DNA of 60,769 bases, counting the filler, from Platydemus manokwari (taxonomy: Eukaryota): the NCBI GenBank assembly GCA_037951405.1. It is 6 parts of 6 records of this genome, joined end to end, with 100 filler letters (N's around TTAATTAATTAA, not from the genome) between each part and the next. Parts side by side here need not be neighbours in the genome. Positions count along the whole stretch, not along the records: positions 29,448 to 40,829 come from JBBMOY010715539.1; 5 more parts are not named here. One strand, given 5' to 3'. Positions 1,600 to 59,883 of the stretch are shown piece by piece (within the stretch, counting starts at the first letter, position 1; each line of letters opens with the position of its first letter). The notes below the pieces were generated by a model. The model did no database searches and was not told where the DNA came from. It worked only from the letters and a program-made list of their open reading frames with translations. Both the position numbers and the translations under genes were made by a program.

Positions 1600-3307
1600 A
1601 TTTCAGATATTGTAAAATTTATATCATGTCAAAGTCCAATCGACGAAATGCGTAAAGTCTGATAAAAAAAAGCAAACGAACTCAATACAAACACAATTTT
1701 TGCTAATCGACGAAACACACTGATTTAGCCAATAGATTTCTAATATAAGCGAATAAATTCACACAACATGTTGCCATAGCAGTTTTGAACTTGTAATTTA
1801 AGTAATTTGAAATATTGAATTACTTTCATCGGGCCATAAATTTCAAGATTTATAATATTAATATCGAAATTATATATTTATCAATTTGAAAATTTCGGAA
1901 TATTATAGCACTTAAAATACAATTTTAATATAAAATCAATTAAACACAATTTTATGAATAATTTTCAAACTTTTCTAAAGTAAAGACTTTAGGTTTAATA
2001 ATTATTATATTACGTCAACCATTTTTATTTAAATAATATATAATGTAAGCAACAAAAAATACTTGACTAAATAAATTCCCGCACAAATTGTTTTATTCGG
2101 TAAAATTTAAAAAGTTTGAAATTGAATTAATAATATTGTGTTGAAAAAATATTTTAAAAATATTCATGAGCTTTGATTTTCGAATTGGTAATTGATTTGA
2201 AAAGGATAAAATGAAATTTCAAACTAAGAGTAAAAATTTTTAAATCTAGAAATCACAAGGAAACATGATAAAGGATTCTTCATTTCTTTCTAAATTTCAA
2301 ATTGTCAGACATAATAAGAAAAATTATTCAATTGCCTAATTTTTCTTCTATAATTGAACAGTTTAAATCGCAATTGAATACCTCGATAACCAATGAAGCA
2401 TTTTAAAATTTTAATAAAACCTTAAAATGCTTATTAATAAAATTACATAAATAAATAACCGAAGGATGTAATCACATATTATTCCTTAGCAAACCTCCGT
2501 CCAAATTTATATTAATATAATGTGAAGCGGAGATGCACAAAGGAGTTAATTATGATTAGTGATTTGGTAAACAACCGAACGTCGATTAGAATAAAAGAAT
2601 TAAAAATTGATCATACTAAATTCATAGTTTCAATATTATTCTTTTATATGCAAATTGGTAACAGGAAATAATATCAATAAAAAGTTGATAACAACTGATA
2701 AATATTGTATTCATCTGTTCAGCTGGACAAATAATTTTCAACTAATGAAATTATATGAATCTTTAATATCAATTTCATTATATAATTTTTGGATTATTAT
2801 TTAACCTATCGTAATATCGTGAAGAAATTAACAAACTCGAAATATAGCTTTAATAATTCAAACTCAACTGACTTTAATGTCTAAATTATAGTTTTAAGAA
2901 GGAAAAATAATTTCACTATATTACAAATTTACAAATCATATTTAATCCAATCGTTAAAATTTAAAAATAACTTCTCTTAAGAATAAATAAAATTTGTGCA
3001 ATTAACAATTCATTTTATCACTACCAGAGACAGAATCAGTTAGTAATTCGAATCTACTGATTTTCATAGATGGTATTTAAAAATGATAATTTAATCTTAC
3101 TCAAACCACCTCACAAGGTATAACGAAAGATTATTTAGTGTGTCCAGTTCATTAAAAAATCTACAAATACTAAACCTTAAGAATCTGAAGTATAATCTCA
3201 CTGATTTATTTCTATAAGAATTTTGCTTATTTTAAAAATTATCATATCTAAAATCAATATTAATACTTTTTTCAATGATAATGACACAACACCAATGATT
3301 TTTGTTA

Positions 3308-4012
3308 GAGAAATGGTTCCAAACAACCAAAGATTTCGCGACCTGTAATCAAATTGAACTATCATTTGCATTTTACATGCTTTTGAGAGATCACGCCAAA
3401 CAGCTATGGCATGAATTCAGCAGTTTCAAAGAGGCTGTTTCAAATGAAGAAATTGAGAAATGGTTTTTAGAAACATTTTCACGTGCCTACACAATGTACG
3501 ACAAAGTTCAGGATTTGGCAACAATGCAACAAAGACCAGATGAAAAATATCGCAGTTTTGAACTTCGAGTAAAGAAGCTAGTTTCGGAGATATTTGATAA
3601 GAAAAACACTCTTGAAGAAATTTCAAGACTATTTATTCTGCAAAGTCTAAATAGCAAAAAATTGAAAGTCTTTTACTTTCGACCCTGCAATCGTCCAACG
3701 ATAGAAAAAGAGACCTAGCTGTCAATTTGAGAAGTTAACTCCGATGAAGGAGACTTTCAGAAGGAGACTTCGTTCAAAAAGTCTAGTACAATCGTACAGA
3801 AAAGAGATTTTGGTGTAAAGGAATATCATCGACTACCAGTTAATCGCATTGAATTTCCAAACATTAAGAGACCAACAAGATCAATGAAGGCTACTGCCTC
3901 TAAATTTTACAACGATTGTAGATGAAAACCAACACCACGTGATGATTATTTGAAACCAGGAGCTTGTTTTTGCTGTGGTGAGCTTGGACAATGAAGTTTG
4001 AATGTTCACTGT
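3308..4012 (+). pseudogene. Gypsy gag (capsid region plus degenerate CCHC knuckle)
   Basis: ORF 3302-3718 resembles retrotransposon gag; a CFCCGELG knuckle remnant starts at 3965. Confidence 0.75.
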
Positions 4013-4299
4013 GGAATAAATGTTTGTTAGCCAGGAAGCCTAGTTACAATAGTCAAAGGAGAATATTGTGCATCCATGACGAATAAAATGAAATCGATAT
4101 TCAAACGGAAAGTGAAACAAGTGACTATGTTAGCTCACTCACCATGGAAGACAAAAAAACTGGCGTTAACCTCCTGTGCCTATCTCGTCAGTGGGGTTGA
4201 GTCAATAGAACACATATCAACTACAGATGGAATAGAAGTAAAGAAGAAAGTAGGCAAGAGGAAGAGGAAGCATTCACAGATGTATCAGAAAGCAGATGG

Positions 4300-4620
4300 T
4301 AGTCAGTGGAGTAAAATTGAGTGCAACGATGCACATATTGAAATGTTATGGGATTCTGGTGCATCAATAACATTAATGAACGAGAGTAATTGGAGGCGCA
4401 TTGGAGAGTCGCAGATTAAAAATTCTGAAGTTCGATTGGCTGGTGTATTTTCCAATACACACAAATCGTGTCTAGGGAAAATAAGGATCCCAATAGTTTG
4501 GAACAACAAAATTCTAGAAAAGGAAATCATTGTAGTAAAAGAAATATCACCAGGATTTATAGAAGGAGTTGATATGGTGTAGACTTGTGGAATATTCCTT
4601 GCAGGGATAAAATCAATTGA
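4300..4620 (+). pseudogene. Gypsy aspartic protease
   Basis: Active-site motif LWDSGASITLM at 4346; C-terminal FIEGVD resembles ILGxD. Confidence 0.85.
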
Positions 4621-4769
4621 TGCCAAAGACGTGGGAAATACAGTGACCAAGACATAATCGAAACGGAACTAAAGAGTATTGATGATAAGAACGATATTTG
4701 TTGAATAGGTATATAAAAGATAATGGCTCAATTTTTATGGCTTCTCGGTTCGATTTGTGACTATCAGAT

Positions 4770-5740
4770 TTGGTGAAGCACGAAAACTGTACAAAAGGGG
4801 AACCTATTGGTCAAAATCCCAGAATGCAGCCAATAAATTTAAAAACCAAAATTCAAGAATTGATAGAAAATCTTCTCGAAAGTAATGTCATAACGCCGTG
4901 CAAAAGCCCTTGGAACTCACTTTTGGTAGTGGTTCCAATGAAAGATGGATCAATCAGGGTGTGTTTAGACTTTAGAAAGTTAAACGAACAGACTGAGAAG
5001 TTTTCTTTTCCGGGACATGATATCCAAACGTTATTGGACTCTGTGTATGGAGTGACGGTTTTTTCCACGATAGATTTTGGCCAAGCATATTATCAGGTTG
5101 AACTTGAGGAAGATTCTAAAATGATAACGGTGTTCAGAACTAGAACTGGGCAGTTTTAACAGACTACCTTTTGGAGTATTTAACGTGCCAACAACGTTTC
5201 AGAGTCTAATGAATACTATATTCATGGACTTGATTTACAAAGGCGTTTTTGTTTATCTGGACGATATTTTAGTGTATGGAATAACAGTAGAGGAACGCAA
5301 TGAGAAACTGAACAAAGTATTCAGGTTGATTAAATTATCAGGTTTGAAAATCAATCCCAAGGGATGTGCTTTTTGCACTGGAAAATTAAATTTTCTCGGT
5401 TATACGCTTAGTGCATAAGGTTTAGAAACTAATAACGGCAAAGTGAAGATTAAAGAAGCAATTAAACCTGGTTGCATCCCGAGAAATGCACTTTTGGCAC
5501 TAGAAAATTGAATTTCTTGGGTCATACGGTCAGTACAGAAGGTATAGAAACTAATGACGACAAAGTAAAGATTAAGGAAGCAATTAAACCTGGTTGCATA
5601 ATTCAGTTGAGATCGTTCCTAGGATTATGTAATTATTACAGAAGATTTATCAAGGACTACGAACTATTTACGGCTTCGTTATATGCGATGATGACTGGAA
5701 GTGACAAGAAATTTGAGTGGAGTACAGAGTGTGAGTAAAG
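4770..5740 (+). pseudogene. Gypsy reverse transcriptase (frameshifted)
   Basis: SPWNS, KDGSIRVCLDFRKLN, FSTIDFGQAYYQV, RLPFG, YLDD (5254-5265), FLGH, LRSFLGLCNYYRRFI. Confidence 0.95.
5354..5597 (+). repeat. 122-bp tandem duplication inside RT
   Basis: 5354-5475 and 5476-5597 both run from ATCCC to AATTAAACCTGGTTGC; about 21 mismatches by hand count. Confidence 0.9.
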
Positions 5741-5780
5741 CTTTGAAAATCTTAAGGAACAATTATGTACAGCTCCGATT

Positions 5781-6170
5781 TTGTCCTTTCCAGATCGAAA
5801 CAAAGAGATTATATTAGACACCGATTCTAGTTTCGGAGTGATTGAAGGCGTTCTAAGGCAGCTGGATGACAATGGAAAAGAAAGAGTAGTGGCCTATGGT
5901 TCTAGAACTCTTAACAGTTATGAAAAAGGTTATTGCGTTACAAGGAAAGAGCTTTTGGCAATCCACGAGTTTACTATGCATTTTAAACATTATCTGTTGG
6001 GAAAGAAATTTGTGACTCGCACCGATCACAAAGTCTTGACATACATGAAGAAAACTAGCAAACCAATTATCCATTAGTTTCAGAAATGGTTTGCAAACTT
6101 ATCCGGATTCAGTTTCGAACTTCACTATCAGAAACGATCAGATCATAGAAATGCAGATGGACTCTCAAGG
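5781..6170 (+). pseudogene. Gypsy RNase H
   Basis: LDTDSS, VVAYGSRTL, YCVTRKELLAI, RTDHK, NADGLSR. Confidence 0.9.
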
Positions 6171-6479
6171 ATAGGCGAAGTATTTTGTTTACAATGCTTA
6201 ACCCAGCACCAGGGAGCTCAAGAAGGTAAACCAAAAGACCGGGTTATTGATGTTGTCGAGCATTCAATTGCAAATAATGACGAACTAAGAAAGATTCAAC
6301 AAAAAGATGCAGTCGTTGATTCCATTCGAAAATGGATAAGGAAAACAGAAGCAGAAGTCAATTCAACGGTCAAGAAACGCAAATATTTTAACAGTTTAGA
6401 GAAATATGAATTGTTTGAAGATATGGTGGCGTATAATGAAAATATAAAGAAACGCAGAAACTTAAGAGATATCTTCAGG

Positions 6480-7060
6480 AGGAGTTGTACCATATTGGTA
6501 ATAAGAAATTGGTCAATTATATTCAAAAAATTTAATTCTGGTCAAATATGTCACGAAGCATAGAACACGAAGTGCGGAATTGTGATATCTGTGCTAAACG
6601 GAAGATATACACTGGACGGACTAAAAAGATTATGATTCCCAGGGAAGAGTTTGGTCCTCTGGAACGAATCGTTGTTGAAGTTGCGCACTTTGGGGAATTT
6701 ATGACTAAAACCAGGTATTTGTTGGTTGTTATCGATAGATTCAGTAAGTTAGTAAGCTTTGAGCCAAAATTCATCATCGATAAATGGATTTATAGGTATG
6801 GTGCCCCAAAATCAATGCTCACTGATCAGAGTAGAGTCTTCGAAGGAAGGGAAATGAAACAATTAGCGACACCTTTTGGAATAAAACAAAAATTTATCTC
6901 CCCATACCAACATCAGGCAAATGGCTTAGCCGAAAGGATGATTAGGACGGGCCGAGACATGTTGGTAACAACGATGGCATCAGAGAAATAGGCTTGGGAG
7001 TTCAGAGTTCAATTCAACATTCTCCTTTTGAAATATTGTTTGGTCAGAGAATTAATATGC
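6480..7060 (+). pseudogene. Gypsy integrase
   Basis: HIG and CDIC zinc-finger residues, IDRFSK, YGAPKSMLTDQ, SPYQHQANGLAER. Confidence 0.9.
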
Positions 7061-29447: not shown

Positions 29448-29563
29448 TTCTATGGCGCATATTTTATAAGGCTAATACATATGGGAATCCTAACTGGGTT
29501 ATATAGCAAAAGGAATTTTTACAACATATTTTTACAATTTGGTTTTGATTTTGATTAACTTAC

Positions 29564-29737
29564 AATTTATATTTTTGGAATGTTTGTACAATTTTTTGGT
29601 TATATTTTGAAATGCGAACTAAATGGGAATTTATATTTTTGGGATGTTTGTACAACTTTTTGGTTATATTTCGAGATGCAAACTAAATGGAGATTATGTG
29701 CTAGGTGGGTTAAATGGGGATTATGTGCTAGGTGGGG
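29564..29737. repeat. Adjacent tandem duplications (2x64 bp and 2x27 bp)
   Basis: 29564-29627 vs 29628-29691; TAAATGGRGATTATGTGCTAGGTGGG at 29684 and 29711. Confidence 0.9.
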
Positions 29738-29746
29738 ATCCCAACA

Positions 29747-30700
29747 CTACTTTGGGGTTTGAAAAGCCTCGTCCTCGTGGCTCTGGAACAGCTTACGGGG
29801 CTTGCCACGGACTTCTGCTTTTTTGTTATTTATCTTAAGGATGATGGGTGGAATGTGGGCCCATGGGATGCTGCTGTCTATGTCTACATCTGGGATGGCA
29901 TCCCATATCTCCATCGACGGCGTTTCCTTTTCTTCTGGTGATGGCGGCGGTGTCCCCATTTCCAGCTTTATCTCGAAGTCCTCTTCCTCATCTATTTCCA
30001 GGACTTCATCTGCGTCTACTTCCGGGGCTTCCTCCTTGTTTATCTCTAGGGCTTCATCCTCTTCTTCCTCCGGAGCTTCCTTTTCTTCCTTATCTGCTAG
30101 CCACTCTTTATAGCTTTTTATCGTGGCATCTATTTCCTGTGTTTCTTTATGTATTCTTCTCATTTCCTTCTGATCTTGTTTTAACTCCTTCATTTTTCCT
30201 TGTAGGGCATCCATAAGGTCCCACTTGTTCGTTATTTCCTTTGCCTTTTCCTCAAACTTTTCCATTCTTGCCTTCATCTCTTCTAACTTTTTCTGCATCT
30301 CCTTCTTTTCGTCCTTTGCCCTTTTTTCCCACTCAGATTCCTCTTCTTCTCTCTGCATTGCTTCTTCATACTCACAACTCCATCTTAGCAGCTCCTCCAA
30401 CTCTTCCTCCTCATTCCAACTACTAATATCGACATCCATGTCCTCTATTCCCAGGTCCATGTCCACCGTTTGCTCTACCAGCATCTGTTCCATTCCGCTA
30501 TGACTTGTTCCTGGCTCATCTTCTTCTCTGGGTTTCTTTCTTGGGCATTTCTCTATGGGGAACTGTTCTTCCCCCAAATGCTGTCGTATCATATGTTCGT
30601 ACGACCTCTTTGCCGCCATTGATTCCTTATCCCTCACTTCTTCATCCAATGGAATCAATCTCCAAGCTCGTTGCGGCGGCTCCCGCTCTTTTATTATCAT
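29747..30700 (-). CDS. Unknown acidic coiled-coil protein, 317 aa, intronless; probably viral or TE origin
   Basis: Long intact ORF, GC-richer than its flanks, E/K-rich heptads, internal 16-aa repeat (EAPEEEEDEALEI / EAPEVDADEVLEI). Confidence 0.65.
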   Translation of the reverse strand: MIIKEREPPQRAWRLIPLDEEVRDKESMAAKRSYEHMIRQHLGEEQFPIEKCPRKKPREEDEPGTSHSGMEQMLVEQTVDMDLGIEDMDVDISSWNEEEELEELLRWSCEYEEAMQREEEESEWEKRAKDEKKEMQKKLEEMKARMEKFEEKAKEITNKWDLMDALQGKMKELKQDQKEMRRIHKETQEIDATIKSYKEWLADKEEKEAPEEEEDEALEINKEEAPEVDADEVLEIDEEEDFEIKLEMGTPPPSPEEKETPSMEIWDAIPDVDIDSSIPWAHIPPIILKINNKKAEVRGKPRKLFQSHEDEAFQTPK

Positions 30701-31075
30701 TCATGGTTTGATGGGTGCGGGATCTACCCATTCTAAAACCTCTTTTGTCTTTTCCGTTTCTTCCTCTTCGTATCTCCGGACCTTCTCTTTCCAGCGGTTG
30801 TCCTGATTATCATCTTCATGGTCCTTCCATTCCTTTTCAACCGCTTTATATACTGCCTGGACTCCTGCTATTATGTCCAGCAGTTCCCCCTGTCTCATCC
30901 TCCGTCCTAAGATCCGATGATAAATATCTTGCAACCGATATGTTGTTGCAATCCTCTGCCGATGTCCCTCTCTCTGCATCCGGTCTTCATCAGCTGCTTT
31001 TTGATTAATTATTGGTGATCCATCCAAGTCTCGGATGCCAAGCACCTCTTCCAATCTTACTCCTATGGCCGTCAT
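30701..31075 (-). CDS. Unknown 124-aa protein directly upstream of the 317-aa ORF
   Basis: Intact ORF; its TGA abuts the next ATG (TGAATG); same elevated GC. Confidence 0.6.
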   Translation of the reverse strand: MTAIGVRLEEVLGIRDLDGSPIINQKAADEDRMQREGHRQRIATTYRLQDIYHRILGRRMRQGELLDIIAGVQAVYKAVEKEWKDHEDDNQDNRWKEKVRRYEEEETEKTKEVLEWVDPAPIKP

Positions 31076-31252
31076 TTTAATTCATTTATTAACATTATTT
31101 ATTGATTTTGAATCCATTTATCAATATCGTTTAATGATTTTGAATCAATTTATTAATATAATTTATTGATTTTGAATCCATTTATTAATATTATTTATTG
31201 ATTTTGAATTCATTTATTAACATTATTTATTGATTTTGAATTCATTTATTCA
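31075..31252. repeat. 32-bp AT-rich minisatellite, about 5.5 copies
   Basis: Unit TTTTGAATYCATTTATTAAYATTATTTATTGA at 31106, 31138, 31170, 31202 and 31234, plus a first copy overlapping the ATG. Confidence 0.92.
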
Positions 31253-32489
31253 TTTTTTAAATCAGGTTAATTTTTATTTATAAATTTATCGGTTTTACTT
31301 TTTAGTCATAACTTATCTAGTTCGACAGTTTTTCTATCACTTCAATAACGCTGATTACATAAACCTATGTTATCACAGAATTTCATATATTAATCTTTAT
31401 TATCAACATCAGGTCTAATTTTATTTGGATTCATTTTTGTTTTATTATTTTTTGTCTTTTCATCAGTCTCCGTGTGATATTGAGGCATATACAGGATATG
31501 GCTTTAAAAATTGATTATCACCAACTACTAATTTATTATAATCTTTCAGTGAGCGATCATTGAATTCGTTGCACTTTTATGATTTTCTTACGTTTATAAT
31601 TTTATATTATTTCCATATCAGTTTTGTATATTTTCAAAAACTCAATCCCTTGTCACGTTGCAAAATTTAAGTGAAATATTTTAATTGATTTTCTGTATAA
31701 TTTTTCATTTTTCTTTAAAGTAGTTCTTGATCACTCACTATACAGTAAAGTCCCATGATATAATATTGATTAAATGAGAAGATTAAAATCGCAATTATCT
31801 TCAAGATAAATATTTAGCCACCAACGCACCTGACTACTAATGTCATGATAGTTAGCTTTAAGATTTACTCGAGGCTCCATAATTTCACCTGTATATTATT
31901 TCAGTTAAACATCAATAGTTTTTGACATCATACGAGATTATCAAAGCCTTTTCAAAACCAACACACAGAATCAGGTTAACAACCAGCTCAGTCTAAAATT
32001 GATAAACCCTAGATAATGAGTTGTGCTCATTATCTCATATTTAATTTAAAACTGACACGCTGAAACTAAAAGATATAAAATTAAAAATATAAATATACAA
32101 CCTGTTTATATAAAATATACAACAAGAATATAAAGCATGAATATAATTACATAAAATATAAATATAATTAAAAAAAACGATAATAAATATAATAATAAAA
32201 ATTATAAATAAATATTGATTGAAAGTAAAGGAAAAATAAATAGTAATATTTTAGTAAAAATTAGAAAAAATATTAATTTATTATAATAAATTATAGTAGT
32301 TATGGTAGTTATGACAACGCGACATGTGTTTGATATTGAATTTGTAATAATTTTGGTAACGTGTTAAAAACATTCCATTTGCCTTTAAGATTCTCAGACT
32401 TTGGTTTTTGAATTGGAAACAGAAATGTTATACAGAACTCTTTTAATAGTTCATTTTCTCGAATGTAGAAAAGGTAGTGCAAGCCGCTA

Positions 32490-32645
32490 CTGTTTTATAA
32501 AACATGCCTTAAAAACGAGTTGCTCAGTCACGACACTAAATTATCAATTGAAAAAACATCATTTAAACAAATTTATGTCTTTCAATGTTAATTTAAACAA
32601 ATAATTTTAAATTTAAATTGTTAAATCCCCACAGGGAGAAAACAT
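32490..32645 (+). repeat. Dispersed repeat, related to 45195-45345
   Basis: Shared blocks TTTTATAAAACA, AAAACGA, GTCACGACACYAAATTAT and AAATYCYCACAG on two different contigs. Confidence 0.55.
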
Positions 32646-33900
32646 GACTTTTCATTCCTATTCCAATCACAAATCTTAATAGGATTTGGTAAATTTCAAT
32701 TTATTTTAATTCGTAATCGACCAAATAAACTCTTCACATCTAATAATATCATTTGTTTTCACAAAATATTTGTTTGAAAATCCAACCGTTTGCTTATGAT
32801 GTTAAAATCAAGGTCATTGAAATTTTCGAATAAATTGCAATTTGACCACTATCTCCAATAATCGATTTTTAAGAGGTTTTAAAGCTGTAGACTATTTGGC
32901 TTGAGTTAAGAAAATAGGTCTTTGACCTACTTTCGTAATAATGAGAGATAATTTTATAATTTAAGTTTACTCATACTCGTGATGTTTGATTTATTTGTAT
33001 AATTTAGTTAATATCTCACCATTTAGCATGTCCAATAAGGACAAAATATAGTTTTAATAACAAGTTCTCATTCTAATCAAAGCACCTCTTTACGATCATT
33101 TGAGTTTTCAAAAGTTAAATTTTTATAATTATAAATCGAGCTAGTTAATTAAAGGCATGTTTAATAATATCATTGTTTATTTTTATAAAATAATTCTAAA
33201 ACTAAAAATTGACAGCTTCCAATGTTAAAATAAATGGTTCTCGCTGATTTTCAAAAAATTGCAATACGACCTATTTTGATCCCTTTTTCAAATAATCAAA
33301 TTCTAGGACATTTTAAAGTTCTAGTTTATTTAATATTTGATTTCGAACAAATAAAATTTTTCTTAAGCGCTGAAATGAAAAATTCGACATGTTTTTAAAG
33401 AATATAATTAAATAAACTATATAGATTCTTGCAATACACTAAACTAATTTTAAAATTTACCTTAGGACATCTTCTTAACTTTAGCTGACTATTGGATGTC
33501 AAACAACTAAATTCATCTTAAATCAAAACTCGATGTGCTTTTAAAAAAGATTTGATTCGATTAATTTAAAGCTAAATATGAAGTCGGTGTAGACAAACCT
33601 GATATATTTTTAAATATCATTATATGTAAAGAATAGCAATAAAATACAGTATTTGCTAATTATGACATTAATCAGCTTCATTACTTAACAACGCATTACG
33701 GCTCTATGTCATTTAACTACGCACACACGTTGCAAGACAACTCCAGACAGAAAGCAGCATAAAAATCATTAAATTTATTAAAACATTGTATAAATATATT
33801 TCCAAAGGGTATTTCGACCAAACAAGCGAATAACATTAAGGATGGAAATCAAATCAAATCAAATTAATCGAGAATAAAATTCTCCAATATTATAAATTGA

Positions 33901-35840
33901 TCACGATTTCATATGATGAACTATAAACTTGTGCTCAAGTAATTCATTAACCGATGCTCTGACTTTAGAATTTCCTATCAAACACCTATCGATGAAATCT
34001 TTTAAATCTTTTGATCTGGTTTCGTGTAAGTCATAACTTATCTTTTCATATTTACCTATTTCAATCATTGCTTTCATTTCACTTTTACCATGGAAAGGTG
34101 AAAGGCCTGCAAATACAAATCGTTATACCGTTATGATATTAACAATAAATAAAATACCTGTAGCCATTTCTATTAATGTTGCCCCAAATGACCACACATC
34201 GGCTTGAATACCGTAAGGCTGGTTATTGCAGACCTCAGGAGCCATGTATCGATATGATCCAAGTTTTGATTGTTCAAACCCAGTTTGAAGAAATTTTTGA
34301 TCGCCACCATGAACATATTTAGCAACACCAAAGCTAGACAATTTGATATTTTCATTTCCATCCACCATAATGTTGGACGCTGTACAATATGAATAAATTT
34401 CATGAATATTTCTTTTATTTTACTTAAATATTACGTTTGACGTTTCTGTGAATGATTTTGTTCTTGTGAAGATGTTTTAGAGCTTCTAAGATTTGCTTTG
34501 CCCATTTTGCGATTGTATTTTCAGTTAAAAGTTTATCTTTATCCAAAAATTGCTTGATAGATCCCTACAAAGAATGGGTCAAATGATCACAATTACTGAT
34601 AACACATTTTAATTTACGTTCATCTTTTCCATGCCAATATAAAAATAGTCTTTGTCTTTAAAAACTCCTTTTAATTGGACAAACCTTGGATGTGATTTTG
34701 TTACTTGAAAGGTCACTATTTCGTTCAAAAACGCCTTGTTTTCTTTCAAATTTTTCATAGGTTCCAATGGGTATTTCTTTAAGATTATCTGTTCAGTTGT
34801 CCATGGATTTTGAACCTCTAAAATTTCGGAAATTTCGCCTGATTTAATGTTTTGACTTGAAATCTGTATGTTATTTATGCTAGAATAAAAAATGAGAAAT
34901 AATCTAATAATGTGTCATTGGTTACCTCATCAGACGGCAAAACGCCAGCTTAAAATCACTTTCGGTATCGATTTCAAAAATATATTCAGAATCTTTCAAA
35001 TTTCTTCTATTGTGGAACAGAATTAGATCATGAGCGTCTGATCCTAATTTGGCACCTAATTTCTGCTTGATTTGTAAAACGGATTCCATATTTAAATATT
35101 CAAATTCCATTGGTTCTACACCACCAAATATTGATTTAATTTTTACTTTTCCATTTTTCCTGAAAATTTAATTATGAAAATAAAATCAATAATCAGTTTA
35201 ATGCACTCTGCAATAATTTTCAGCCAATCATAATCTTCAAATGTTTTCAATTCTTTTGACTCATCCAACAATTCATCTGATTCTCGGAAAATGTGTGTTT
35301 TAGCATCGCTAACCAATCCGGAAATAATCAATCGTAAATCTGCAATTGATTGATTTTTGGTTATTTGAATCATTTCTGGAAGTCTGACATTTCCTCGCAA
35401 TTGTAATATAACAATGTCACTATTATCAACAAGATTTATCGATTATCTTTAATCAATATTCAATGAAACAAAACCTGGGATCCAAATTCTCATCCACTAT
35501 TCTGCAATGAACAACATTACGAGAAGAGGAAACATAATCGCACAAATATCGATTATCATCAAGATCTTTATCATCTAATTGCAATTTCATCAATTTGAAA
35601 TCGTATGAGTTAGAATTGAGCCATTTCGCGCAGATTTTCATTTTCACCTTTACTATATTATCGTCTTTATAGATTTCCAATTCTATCGACTTTTCCGAAA
35701 ATCCGATTCGAAATTCTATCAATAATCCATAAGGATCTAAACCAGATATGATTTTATTACTGACCAAACCAATTAATAAAATGAAGAGCAAAAGCTTATC
35801 TTGTACAACTGTCGTATTTTAACAATTTAAGCCATTCCAT
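33901..35840 (-). CDS. Three ubiquitin-like domains fused to an STE/MAP3K-like pseudokinase, at least 7 exons; start uncertain
   Basis: Splice phases are consistent from about 35736 to the TGA at 33901. Kinase subdomains: IILKK, FLNE, HPRFV, HRNVKPSNIM, KLSSFG, YMAPE, ADVWSFG, RASVNELLEHKF. Three upstream exons of about 75-85 aa show a UBL-like pattern (e.g. SVLQIKQKL..LILFHNRRNLKD). Confidence 0.85.
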
Positions 35841-38800
35841 ACCAACACAACCATACAGGCATGGCAATCAACCAATCACAGATGACTTAGATAGGAAATG
35901 ATAATTTGAAAAGGCGACGAGCCATACAATAACACACAGATAAGGGTTGACCAATCCCGAGATTACAAAAACCAACAGGTCCAATAGAAACATTAGAAAT
36001 GAAATGACAAATCAAAATTTGATAAGAACGTGATACAAAAATTGCACCCATGGTCTCGAGTATAAATAACCAATGTAAAGATGGTCAAGTTTTGGTTGCG
36101 TTTATGAGATATTGTATTGAGTTTTAGAGAATCGTACCGATTAGTACGTTTGACGATATAGATCTTGGAACTTTCTATTTTCGGTGTCTGCAGTTATTTG
36201 GTTATCGAGAATTTAGTACCAGCGGTTGTGTCGAATGATTGATTATATATACAGCATGTTAAGGTTCGATAATAACCCTGATCTTAAAGATGCTTCAGGC
36301 CACCAAATCGTGTTATTTAAAGAAGAAATTCATGCTTTTGAATTGATAGAGATAACCGGAAATTATAAATATCAAAATCATTAAAAACAATAATCGATCT
36401 AAATATATATATATTGCATCACAGTGCGTGTTGATAACTAATTGATGACAATAAAACCGAACCCAAGACTTGGTCGCTTAAGGAAATTAGGACAATATAT
36501 ATATAGAATTATAATAATGTACCTTTTCAGATTTTTTAATAAATCTATATCATGGAATTGATTTAATAATATGAAAATAAAACTTAAAGTTAAAAATTTT
36601 CACTAACATGAATTATTCGGCGGAAGAATAGGCCTATTCATTGTGTCATTTCCATCTATAGAAGAAAAGAAAAGTTTATTGATTATGCATATATCCGCAA
36701 ATATTGATTATCATTAAACTAACCTATATTCAACTTATTGCAAATGTTGTCAACCTTACAATCTAAATCAGTGTCAAAGATATATCGATAATAAAATAGA
36801 ATAACTTATTTCTACAAGTAATTTATCCAACAGCACATGATCTATGATTTTGTGATCTATAATAATAATAATCGATAAATACTGAAATATTTATTGATTT
36901 GGAATGATGATAATGAGAAAAACAAACCACATAATCACCGTTTAATATATAAGCATGTGATATATTGTTCCTAAGCTATTAGAATTATTTATTTCGTCAA
37001 ATATTTTCCGATAATCAATATCAAATTGTCAATAAATATTTTTAAATTCACTGATCTAAATCGATTTGAAGTGTTAAAAAATCATGTTATGAATCATTTT
37101 GAAAATGATTCACGTAAACGATTGTGAATCATGTAGACAAAATAGGTGATATTTTAGTATTAAAACCAATACCACAAATATAAAGGAATAATGTCATGGC
37201 AGGAAAATATTGAAATGGTTCGAGAAATTATCAACATCATCCAATAAAACAGGTAGATAAAATCGATGAATAAGAACGGTGTCATGAAGTACAATTCAAA
37301 TGACATTCAAAATGAAAAATAATGCCATGTTTACTGACTGATTAATATACACGATCAATATATACGATAAATGATGAATTAAGTAAGAAAGAAGATAGAT
37401 ATAATCAAGTCATTTCAAATGTCTTTTAGTTTGATTCTAAAGATTTAGAATCCATTCATTGATCTCTAAGATCGATTCTATGAAATAATCAATGACAAAC
37501 AAATTACACTTATCGATTATTTATCTTTAATCATAATATTAAAATAAACAGGTGAAATACTTTCATATTGGAGTAGATCGACGTTCTCATAATCTTGATT
37601 ATTTTCTGAATGAAACAAGAATTAAAAAAATATCGATTATAAAAAATCAATTGTGTGTAATATATGGTAACTGCTCATAAAAACGGAAATGAAATCACAG
37701 ATTTTAAATGGAGGGAAATGGTAAATTTGAGTACAAAAACTGAACAGATTTTATAGGCAACAAATCTTATTTGTTGTATTTTTGTAAATCTGAATTGCAC
37801 ATTGCAAAATCAAAGGATCAAGTAGAAGAAACTTACAATATATGGATGAATATAAAGCGAAAAATTATCGATTGAATTGTTTAATCTAAAAAAATATGAA
37901 AATATTGTCAAATAATTTTATTAAAATTTAAGTTTTTTCATTACAAGATAAATGAAGGTAAATCAATAAAATATCTCGATTGATTTCAGAAAATCGATCG
38001 AAGAAGACATAAATGAGAATTTTGAATAAAACATTGAGTATTAATTAAATCTTTATTTTCAAATCAATACAGGCTCGGGTGAATTCAGAATTGATTTTCC
38101 AAGCTCGACAATGAGGTATTATGTTTTTATCATCACAACTTATTGTTATTAATGGAAGGCATGGAAAGCATTCCTTGATTTCACATATTTCTGTAATTTC
38201 GAACATCTATGATTTTATTGAGATTTCAACACACATAAATTCGTACGACGGCAATTTCTCCAGCATTGAGATTCTTGTGACCCTTACTTACAGACGAATA
38301 TCAGCTGATAGACAGGTCTTATGATATGGATATGCCTTCTGCACCTTTCCCCATTGTGTGCTGATTTTATTCATAAATTCCGATAAACATTATTAAAGAT
38401 ATTTTTAATTCACTTCTTATTGATCTATTTTTGAAAAAATATTTTTCATATGAACTGAGTTCGATAAAAATTGCTGATCATCTAACAAATTGTATCTCGA
38501 ATATTAATTTGAAATACTCCAGTTCAAGAAACGCAATTCTAATAATCAACTTCTTGTTTACACAAATCAAAGAGGTCGGTCTGATCGGTATAATCTTTTC
38601 CTGATTCAAGGGAACTGATCACAGTATTCCTAGGAAACTAGAAATTGAACAAAGAAGATCAAAGGTATTACAGAATCAGCAAAGGCCAACAGTTCCATTT
38701 CAAGTTCAATGCTTATACCAGCACCAAATCTGATCGGATGCCGCATGTGAACCGCTCTTGACTGACCATAGCAGAAAAGTGAAGAAATAATGAGTAAACA

Positions 38801-39198
38801 AGAGCCGCATTATCATTACCAGTGATGTCTGCACCAATATTCAGGTAAGATCAATTTCAGGTATCCATTTTATTGAATTAAAAGTAATTTTTATATTATT
38901 GTCCTTCAGAAGGAGAAATTTAATTCACATTTATCGGGAAGAAATGGGTATTCTCATGATATTGCTAGGATAAATAGAGCCAATAATAGAAATGAGTAAC
39001 AAGAAGAGTGAATGTCGGATACACATCCATATAAGGAGTAAGTTCTGCCCCAATAGGTACTTGTCCTTTAGAAGTTATCTCAGAATGGTTTCGTCAGCTC
39101 TTAGTTTAAAAACTCTCAGGAATAATGATATTTCGGGCCTAACAAGCTGTTTTATAGAGAACAGAATCATATAAAATTATCTATGGATACAAACTTAC

Positions 39199-39228
39199 GT
39201 GACCCAGTGGCCCGACCCTTGCGTTTGC
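39199..39228 (-). other. Candidate 30-nt micro-exon
   Basis: TTTTTTTAG|GCAAACGCAAGGGTCGGGCCACTGGGTCAC|GTAAGT: GC-rich with consensus splice sites. Confidence 0.5.
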
Positions 39229-39861
39229 CTAAAAAAATAATCATGGCTTGATAAAATTTTAACAAAACATATATAAAATTCTAAATAAAAATAAAAGCTC
39301 AAGGCATTACGGGATAGATTTATTGGTTACCAGATCGAAATATTATTGGAAAATATATTGATGTATTGAATAATATTGTGAATATAAAACCAGCATATTA
39401 TTTTATTTAAAGATTTCTCTTTACAATGGATATCTTAATGAAAATCATATTTCTGGATATTCCCAGCAATTATATTATCACTTGATTGATGACATAATCT
39501 CATTTTTAAAAATTACATCATCAAAATTTATTATTATCATCGTGCAATTCATTGTTATAGATGGGACTCACACGTTTATCACACCTACACCCACCCAAAC
39601 CCCCACACCAACACATATATATATATATAAAACAATTCAATAAATCAAATCAAATAACAATGCAATTAACGAACATTTAAAAATCCTCCTAAAGGATTGC
39701 CATATGATTTCAATAAACAAGAAAATCAGCAGCAACAGCACCAAAAGAACTAAAATGATATCAATGATATCTCACATAAGATTGAATAGATAATACAATC
39801 TCACATAAACAGATCATCACTTTGAAATCTCGATCTGAAATACAATCATAGCAATAAGATA

Positions 39862-39908
39862 TTGATTATTATTATTATTATTATTATTGTTATTATTATT
39901 ATTATTAT
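39862..39908. repeat. (ATT)n microsatellite
   Basis: Seen directly; similar tracts at about 14572-14600, 40788-40812 and 41662-41705. Confidence 0.85.
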
Positions 39909-58285: not shown

Positions 58286-59883
58286 TCAGAACTGCCCGTT
58301 TCTAGTGCTGAACGCCGTTTTCATATTAGAATCTTCCTCAAGTTCAACCTGATTATATGCTTGGCCTAAATCTATCGTGGAGAAAACTGTCTCTCCATAA
58401 ACTGAGTCCAATAACGTTAGAATGTAAGGTACCGGGAAAGAAAACTTCTCAGTCTGTTCGTTTAATCTTCTGAAGTCTAAACACATCCTGATCGATCCAT
58501 CTTTCTTAGGAACCACGACTAATGGAGAGTTCCAAGGGCTTTTGCAGGGTGTTATGACATTACTTTAAAAAAGATTTTTTATTGATTATTGAATTTTGAT
58601 TTCTAAATTTATTGGTGCCTTCTAGGATTTCGAGTAATAGGTTCCATTTTTGTACTGATTGCGTGCTTCACCAAATTTAAATCCCAAATAAAACCAAGAA
58701 GCCATAAAAATTAAGCTATTTTCATTTATACACCTATTCAATGAAACGTCGTTCTGGTCAGCGAGACTCTTCAATGCCATTTCGATTCTGTCATGGTCAC
58801 TATACTTCTTTCCGACATCCTAGGGATCGATTGATTTTATCAATGCAAAGAATATTCTACAAGTCTTCATTATTTCAACTCCTCCGATAAATACTGTTGA
58901 ATTGTTTTTAATACAAATCTCCTTTACTGGAATTTCGTAGTTCCAAATTGTTGAGATCCTTATTTTTCCTAGACAAGAATTGCGTGTATTGGAAAATACG
59001 CGAGCCAATCGTAAATTCGAATTTTTAATCTGCGGCTCTCCAGTGCACATCCAATTGCTCTCGTTCAATACTGTTATTGATGCAGCAGAATTCTTTAACA
59101 ATTCAATATGTGTACCGTTGCACTCAGCGCTATTGCCTACGATCTGAGTATGCTTCCTGTTTCTCTTGCCGTCTTGCTTCTTTACTTCTATTTTATCTCT
59201 AGCTGATATATGTCCTATTGATGCTCGATGATATTCTTTTACACCAAAATCCCTTTCCTGCACAATTATACTTGGCCTTTTGAACGATCATCTTCTGAAA
59301 GGACTTTTTTGGATAACTTTGAAATATCGACTGAGCATATGTGTTCTTTATGGCTTTTATGGGCTTAGCCGGAGTTAAATTCTCAAAGATGACCGTTGGC
59401 TCTCTTCTTCTATCGTCGGACATTGCAGAGTCGAGAGTAAATGACTCTTTCAATTTCATGCTATTTAGAATGTGCAGAATAAATAATCTTGAAATTTCTT
59501 CAATATTGTTCTTCTTGTCAAACACCTCCAAAACTAGCTTCTTTACTCGAAGTTCATAACTGCGATATTTTTCATGTGATCTTTGTTGCATTGCTGCAAA
59601 ATCTTGAACCTTGTCGTATACTGCTTTGGCATGAGAAAATGTTTTTAAAAACAATTTCTCAAAATATTCATTTGAAACAGCCTCTTGCTACAGTTGTTTG
59701 GCGTCATCTCTCAAAAGTATGTCAAATGGAAATGATAGTTCCATTTGATTAAAAAGTCGCGAAATCTTTGGTTGTTTGGAACCATTTCTCAGCGTCTTGG
59801 ATTGATGAATCGAAGAATAATGGTTTTGAGATTAATAAATCCTGCGTTTTTGTGGCAGAGTGTTAATTTCGGCGTAGTCGCCA
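58286..59883 (-). mobile_element. Ty3/Gypsy copy 2 (same family as copy 1): PBS, gag, PR and 5' part of RT; 3'-truncated
   Basis: Collinear with 3308-5155, e.g. EKWFQTTKDFAT, YDKVQD, KDGSIRMCLDFRRLNEQTEKFSFP, TAFSTRNGQF. Confidence 0.95.
59870..59883 (-). promoter_or_regulatory. Putative primer binding site TGGCGACTACGCCG
   Basis: TGG-initiated GC-rich motif just upstream of gag, preceded by an AATAAA-containing LTR-like stretch; the priming tRNA is not determined. Confidence 0.55.

Follow-up and report, generated by a model that had tools for sequence, protein, structure and literature searches.

What is an island of two abutting, GC-rich open reading frames doing in the AT-rich, highly fragmented 911-Mb genome of Platydemus manokwari? 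The window, as the whole stretch of 60,769 nucleotides analysed here is called, joins six parts of assembly GCA_037951405.1; positions 29448-40829 are the start of one contig, 29448 being a genuine contig start. On the minus strand, a frame of 124 codons ('ORF1', 30701..31075) meets one of 317 codons ('ORF2', 29747..30700) stop to ATG, and TGTTGGG adjoins the last stop directly. GC content is 0.46 in this island and 0.28 across the remaining stretch, and tandem repeats of 32 bp (31074-31250), 64 bp (29564-29690) and 27 bp (29684-29736) lie on either side. An earlier reading, made from the sequence alone, recorded all of this correctly and saw in it an intact foreign module of two ORFs. The evidence presented here points elsewhere: the locus is almost certainly the truncated, stop-broken 3' end of one longer frame, termed ORF-X, together with the start of the 3' LTR, of a multi-copy giant gypsy element of gag-env-pol type. 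Of the origins that the sequence-only reading had offered, one is borne out: accessory ORFs belonging to a large LTR element.

A broken copy of a longer reading frame

Are the two frames two genes? A genome search returned at least 48 matches at 71-97%, the window itself included (40 of 304 candidates were scored), and in the other copies the ORF continues upstream for about another 840 bp. Full ORF-X has about 720 codons, of which the window copy lacks the first 280 or so; its similarity to the family stops at about 31074. This 5' truncation junction (31074..31075, minus strand) is where the apparent start codon of 'ORF1' sits, at the join with a neighbouring repeat, and the ATG of 'ORF2' is an internal methionine of the ORF-X family. 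The stop between the frames (30701..30703, minus strand) is premature: three natural frames, of 450, 465 and 296 aa, stay open across its site, and among 23 other copies that span it, 21 have a sense codon, one a gap and one a stop. There is thus one broken ORF, neither two nor an undamaged pair, and the stop-restart or readthrough translation once suggested for the junction finds no support. The single other copy with this stop, the 609-bp contig L019, is 88% like the window copy overall, and may owe it to a recurrent change or a shared tract.

The impression of an undamaged module arose because few copies have suffered as little over this span as the window copy, which has one stop and no frameshift, as against 2-17 lesions in each of 17 other copies. 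Only 8 of 1,323 sites are private to it, five of the eight at codon positions 1-2. Despite a dS of 0.2-0.35 to the nearest sampled copies, this pattern of change indicates that the copy is fairly young, as had been proposed, and is decaying neutrally; it appears to be dead. The youth of the module stands and its intactness does not. In the contig set of one sequencing run, possibly the source data, read depth is 10.6 in unique flank and mostly 200-2,400 across the element, a contrast in line with multi-copy host DNA. The high GC content is likewise a trait of ORF-X in other copies (0.45-0.46).

The tandem repeats do not bracket a unit. The 64-bp and 27-bp duplications (together 29564..29736) lie inside the LTR, in a region that aligns end to end with locus L028, and short duplications at the same place differ among other copies. 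The 32-bp array, of 5.6 copies, ends an AT-rich interspersed repeat (31075..31470; 46 matches, 71-88%) that is unrelated to the retroelement: at all seven loci of this repeat that were examined, there was no match to the ORF region. The repeat has inverted arms in L106 and L107, and with such long arms in some copies it is probably a non-autonomous DNA element.

Structure of the retroelement

Where does the element begin and end? Copy-number and flank comparisons, which had been proposed as a check, answer this for the LTR edge. Five loci (L028, L033, L074, L075, L076) share this exact TGTTGGG starting point while their flanks are unrelated, and the motif therefore marks the LTR start. The window holds the first 299 bp of the 3' LTR (29448..29746, minus strand; 97% to L028), cut by the contig end. 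In another family (L164, L179) the ORF stop likewise abuts TGTTGGG. LTRs of a sister subfamily run from TGTTG to TAATA, ending in TA and not CA, with short inverted ends; six of seven are 1.6-1.7 kb long, and a 4-bp target duplication is found in four of the seven with both ends. A site starting with TGG lies 5 nt past the LTR in three of four loci, and L192 and L193 connect LTR end, TGG-starting site and pre-gag leader. The best match for this putative primer site is 8 nt to a tRNA-Thr (20 tRNAs called from 30 loci). A motif 1.49 kb into the LTR was rejected as primer-binding site since its position falls within the LTR.

The gene order, assembled from overlapping copies 75-90% alike from ORF-X back to the CCHC region, as follows: an LTR precedes a gag-like region with CCHC and a long polyprotein; next come a gB-type fusion protein, then protease, RT, RNase H and integrase, and a membrane-type extension; after a spacer of about 450 bp stand ORF-X and the final LTR. 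Summed alignment offsets across copies give estimates of about 21-23 kb for the element and, summed by hand, about 15-16 kb for ORF1, the long frame upstream of ORF-X. Among the genome contigs walked, none carries a full-length element, and in the window's family no single open frame was found to run from gag to env. The closest approach is L162, from a sister family, in which a single contig holds an open frame of 2,309 aa from env through protease, RT, RNase H and integrase, in that order, and then an ORF-X homologue of 677 aa. L165 has RT, RNase H and integrase and, after them, a broken ORF of the active-site-intact type.

The fusion glycoprotein upstream of the protease is led by a signal peptide and matches Monjiviricetes_fusion at E 2e-30. 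The gag-like region has one CCHC in L088 and no Pfam gag match at E 0.01. In the long polyprotein upstream of env, two matches stay under the cut-off, ubiquitin at E 4e-4 and Rad60-SLD_2 at E 4e-3; the 15 broken frames searched, which cover part of ORF1, gave no match to dUTPase-like, BIR, BCL2, MATH or ankyrin domains. Rfam gave no match in five loci.

Several copies depart from the common plan or add to it. A long in-frame extension follows the integrase in L041 (771-3077), with several hydrophobic helices by eye and no Pfam match; similar tails occur in L162 and P0122, and P0240 has an Ig domain at that place. The extension is possibly a second membrane protein. In L169 (2826-7959) about three tandem broken beta-helix-exonuclease ORFs follow the integrase on one contig, and in L166, L167, L171 and L180 the exonuclease ORF is immediately preceded by env-like sequence; some lineages may have the order pol-env-exonuclease, or internal deletions. 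L085 (4400-6400) has ORF-X, a partial LTR and gag-side sequence in series, that is, a tandem or rearranged copy. A separate high-copy repeat of 1.25 kb precedes the gag region in L088 (8270-9520), and some of this repeat recurs after the LTR of L039.

The ORF-X protein and its active site

What does ORF-X encode? Pfam gave nothing over its cut-off for the window ORFs and six longer natural frames, and a word-index protein search with a natural frame of 450 aa confirmed none of 7,995 candidates. The view that no domain can be recognised was nonetheless superseded by profile and structure searches, which had also been proposed. In the PDB, one natural frame of 398 aa finds human ISG20L2 at E 1.2e-4 and ISG20 at E 0.023, and with a family profile the ISG20L2 match reaches E 3e-34. 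A profile of 12 copies finds 92 proteins at E <=0.001 among 1.84 billion, most of them with an N-terminal domain carrying an IPNxLK motif and then the exonuclease; 28 of 49 homologues scanned reach RNase_T at E 0.001. Among 30 looked up, 27 of which belong to the ORF-X family, none has a meaningful name beyond 'hypothetical protein'.

An AlphaFold model from the family alone was unusable (pLDDT 30), and a model with a pLDDT of 88.8 was obtained from an alignment that included distant homologues; the fold is for this reason partly set by the alignment. In the model, residues 202-374 have the predicted fold of ISG20, ISG20L2 and REX4 (ISG20 Z 16.6, rmsd 2.4 over 156), with lower scores for Exuperantia (Z 9.2) and Egalitarian (Z 8.8). 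Residues 5-158, modelled within the whole protein, resemble a double-stranded beta-helix (ALKBH6 Z 9.8, rmsd 3.3, 134 aligned), with similar scores for cupins. ORF-X is thus predicted to combine a beta-helix domain of AlkB/cupin-like type with a DEDDh exonuclease fold like that of ISG20 and an acidic tail, which is likely a coiled coil. Of the nuclease fold the window copy retains just the second half, along with the tail: by alignment, PDB matches and the range of the fold, 'ORF1' corresponds to the C-terminal half of the DEDDh domain (about model residues 289-374) and the following helix, and 'ORF2' to the linker and tail.

Of the five residues of the catalytic D-E-D-H-D set, the first Asp alone survives in 7 of 7 aligned copies, the other four being lost. 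The N-terminal domain lacks a conserved HxD...H iron triad; a 65-row alignment has one conserved His column (46 of 53 rows) and a conserved Glu (46 of 58 rows), and no conserved HxD/E. Median dN/dS, from non-independent copy pairs with dS >=0.5, is 0.09 in the N-terminal domain (117 pairs), 0.09 in the nuclease fold (173) and 0.10 in the tail (234), compared with 0.07 in RT (32). By this measure ORF-X is under purifying selection close to the level of RT, despite the catalytic loss.

Is the loss peculiar to this family? Among non-cellular database proteins with rows long enough to score, the catalytic set is complete in 35 and incomplete in 23. Both forms occur in the P. manokwari genome, where 116 matches to an active-site-intact relative were scored: sites are complete in L120, L124 and L132 (Glu at the third place) and incomplete in L162, L164, L172-L175, L177-L179 and L154. 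No replacement metal-ligand set is shared among the lineages that have lost the active site. In a tree of 78 exonuclease domains, one branch (SH-aLRT 91) gathers 27 of the 31 rows with a lost active site; the tree comes from a quick search, has long branches, and includes two 'lost' labels that are probably fragments and a cellular label set by eye. A single catalytic loss is therefore not established by it. Relatives are also encoded at seven metagenome loci of 2-3.5 kb, none with pol, the contigs being too short to show it. Env-pol fusions occur in metagenomes, one of them 3,735 aa long with a zinc knuckle. In IMG/VR, none of 38 pattern matches was confirmed.

Expression and proposed function

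How could an ORF at the far 3' end be translated? ORF-X needs a message of its own because it lies behind an ORF of 15 kb. The env of other retroelements is made from spliced subgenomic RNA. In 15 of 20 ORFs, and in 10 of 12 lineage representatives, the presumed start is preceded within 10 nt by an acceptor-like site of pyrimidine-AG type, compared with 165 of 2,245 background ATGs (7.3%), the pattern having been set after inspection of the sequences and the start codons picked by eye; a first, mis-specified pattern had given 4 of 20 against a background of 10%. The AG is kept in 16 of 17 copies of the window's family. We infer that ORF-X is likely made from a spliced subgenomic RNA.

For the function, an RNA-binding accessory protein is the reading somewhat favoured. 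An ISG20-like nuclease would have been captured, joined with a beta-helix domain and, in certain lineages, turned into a non-cutting RNA binder. The dead nuclease may bind RNA as in Exuperantia or Maelstrom and oligomerise through its tail. ORF-X might shield or handle the element's RNA by protecting its 3' end, or in particle assembly or transport. Neither Exuperantia nor Egalitarian is catalytic, and both bind RNA. Taken as a whole, an explanation in which the window holds the end of ORF-X and a 3' LTR, and working ORF-X likely comes from spliced RNA and serves as a non-cutting, RNA-binding accessory, is considered probable.

Animal retroelements must pass piRNA silencing and RNA decay, and to our knowledge few counter-defence genes have been described for them. 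ORF-X might act here as a suppressor or decoy that mimics host DEDD-fold factors, a reading which its conservation despite catalytic loss would suit; dead DEDD folds such as Maelstrom and EXD1 function in piRNA biogenesis (PMC5408684), and Burro elements are silenced by PIWI (PMC8532177). A dN/dS of about 0.1 in all parts of the protein carries no arms-race signal at this resolution, and the idea is regarded as doubtful. Somewhat less credit still goes to the idea that nuclease activity persists in ORF-X through rewiring of its active site, or that ORF-X is a structural protein of the particle and has nothing to do with nucleic acids: the kept first Asp, the conserved His and Glu of the N-terminal domain and the fold preserved in the model would fit, but the active-site-lost lineages have no new set of metal ligands in common, and their acids are often changed to Lys or Arg, which seems to suit binding over metal catalysis.

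The same weighing applies to the window copy. That a young two-ORF module is translated by stop-restart or readthrough is largely refuted and now scarcely credible; both frames are open and GC-rich with few private changes, and the stop recurs in L019, yet such a module would start at a truncation junction, lack half of a folded domain and carry a stop where nearly all other copies have a sense codon, and its GC content is that of ORF-X elsewhere. Co-option of the truncated copy by the host, with the coiled-coil tail made from the internal methionine, would draw on the 317 open codons of 'ORF2' and on the fewest lesions of the copies compared. The copy has neither the acceptor nor an upstream LTR, however, and its private changes look neutral (4-6 non-synonymous to 2-3 synonymous, small numbers), which makes co-option very improbable. 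A dead end fragment of the retroelement is the reading retained.

Relation to known elements

How new is the element? It appears to be of a known kind, with ORF-X as its new part. The planarian giant gypsy elements Burro/GYPSM1 (PMC6431247) have a mononegavirus-type fusion-protein gene between gag and pol, an ORF1 of 4,873 and 5,140 aa, a total length of >30 kb, accessory ORFs, and SUMO-like, dUTPase-like, BIR, BCL2, MATH and ankyrin domains. The present element likewise has its env after gag and before pol, with env and pol in one frame (as in the open frame of L162), and shares an ORF1 of an estimated 5,000 codons or so, an accessory ORF and a weak ubiquitin/SUMO-like signal upstream of env. 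Unlike Burro, it is by estimate well short of 30 kb, with LTRs of 1.3-1.7 kb, has no BIR, BCL2, MATH or ankyrin match in the frames searched, and ends in an exonuclease-like ORF that the available part of PMC6431247 does not name for Burro. Because it is smaller, and was likened by description and not by sequence, it is called Burro-like and not Burro.

The element also has the gene order and env type of the GAG-ENV-POL errantiviruses with an HSV/gB-type Env that PMC13524379 reports from Nematoda, Bryozoa and Platyhelminthes; the env row of Smed_errantivirus_1 resembles the present env by eye, unaligned. The word 'exonuclease' does not occur in the main text or the seven supplementary files of that paper, and no fourth ORF appears in the available part of its errantivirus descriptions. 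An exonuclease of the DEDD superfamily also stands as the last ORF in LTR elements of bdelloid rotifers: PMC5408684 describes a DEDDy ORF3, of untested function, for Vesta/Juno and for Athena/Terminons. These ORF3s are RNase D-like, with intact catalytic residues, and replace env; ORF-X, by contrast, is ISG20/REX4-like and DEDDh, is fused to a beta-helix, stands beside env and has a conserved active-site-lost form. From cellular exonucleases it differs in its identity of about 17%, its location in a mobile element and its additional N-terminal domain. In the literature searched, no gypsy element is described with an ORF that is DEDDh/ISG20-like or fused to a beta-helix, and a conserved dead form is not reported either; the original Burro description and Repbase may annotate a 3' ORF.

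A dead fragment has in this way exposed a gene family that was nameless in the database members looked up, and giant gag-env-pol elements are extended by a fourth, probably spliced ORF. The nuclease-intact and nuclease-dead forms, found in one genome and several metagenome collections, offer a built-in comparison for the function of the gene. A far bolder generalisation, held to be unlikely, would make these elements an undescribed and widespread class of giant enveloped invertebrate retroelements, with a spliced 3' gene joining a beta-helix to a captured ISG20-like nuclease and split into active and dead forms, the dead form antagonising the host's piRNA or RNA-decay defence.

Traces of other mobile elements were met along the way. 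The sequence-only reading had offered a Polinton-type origin as well, and this was rejected: Maverick/Polinton-type B polymerase-like fragments, recognised by eye, lie 3 kb away in L034 (5953-7882), are common to no other locus and are unlinked to the element. L036 (3676-4101) has a fragment like the superfamily 3 helicase of a rolling-circle Rep, again by eye. In the window itself, positions 3299-6991 and 58820-59687 look alike by eye and hold what decay has left of gag-pol from a smaller family of LTR elements.
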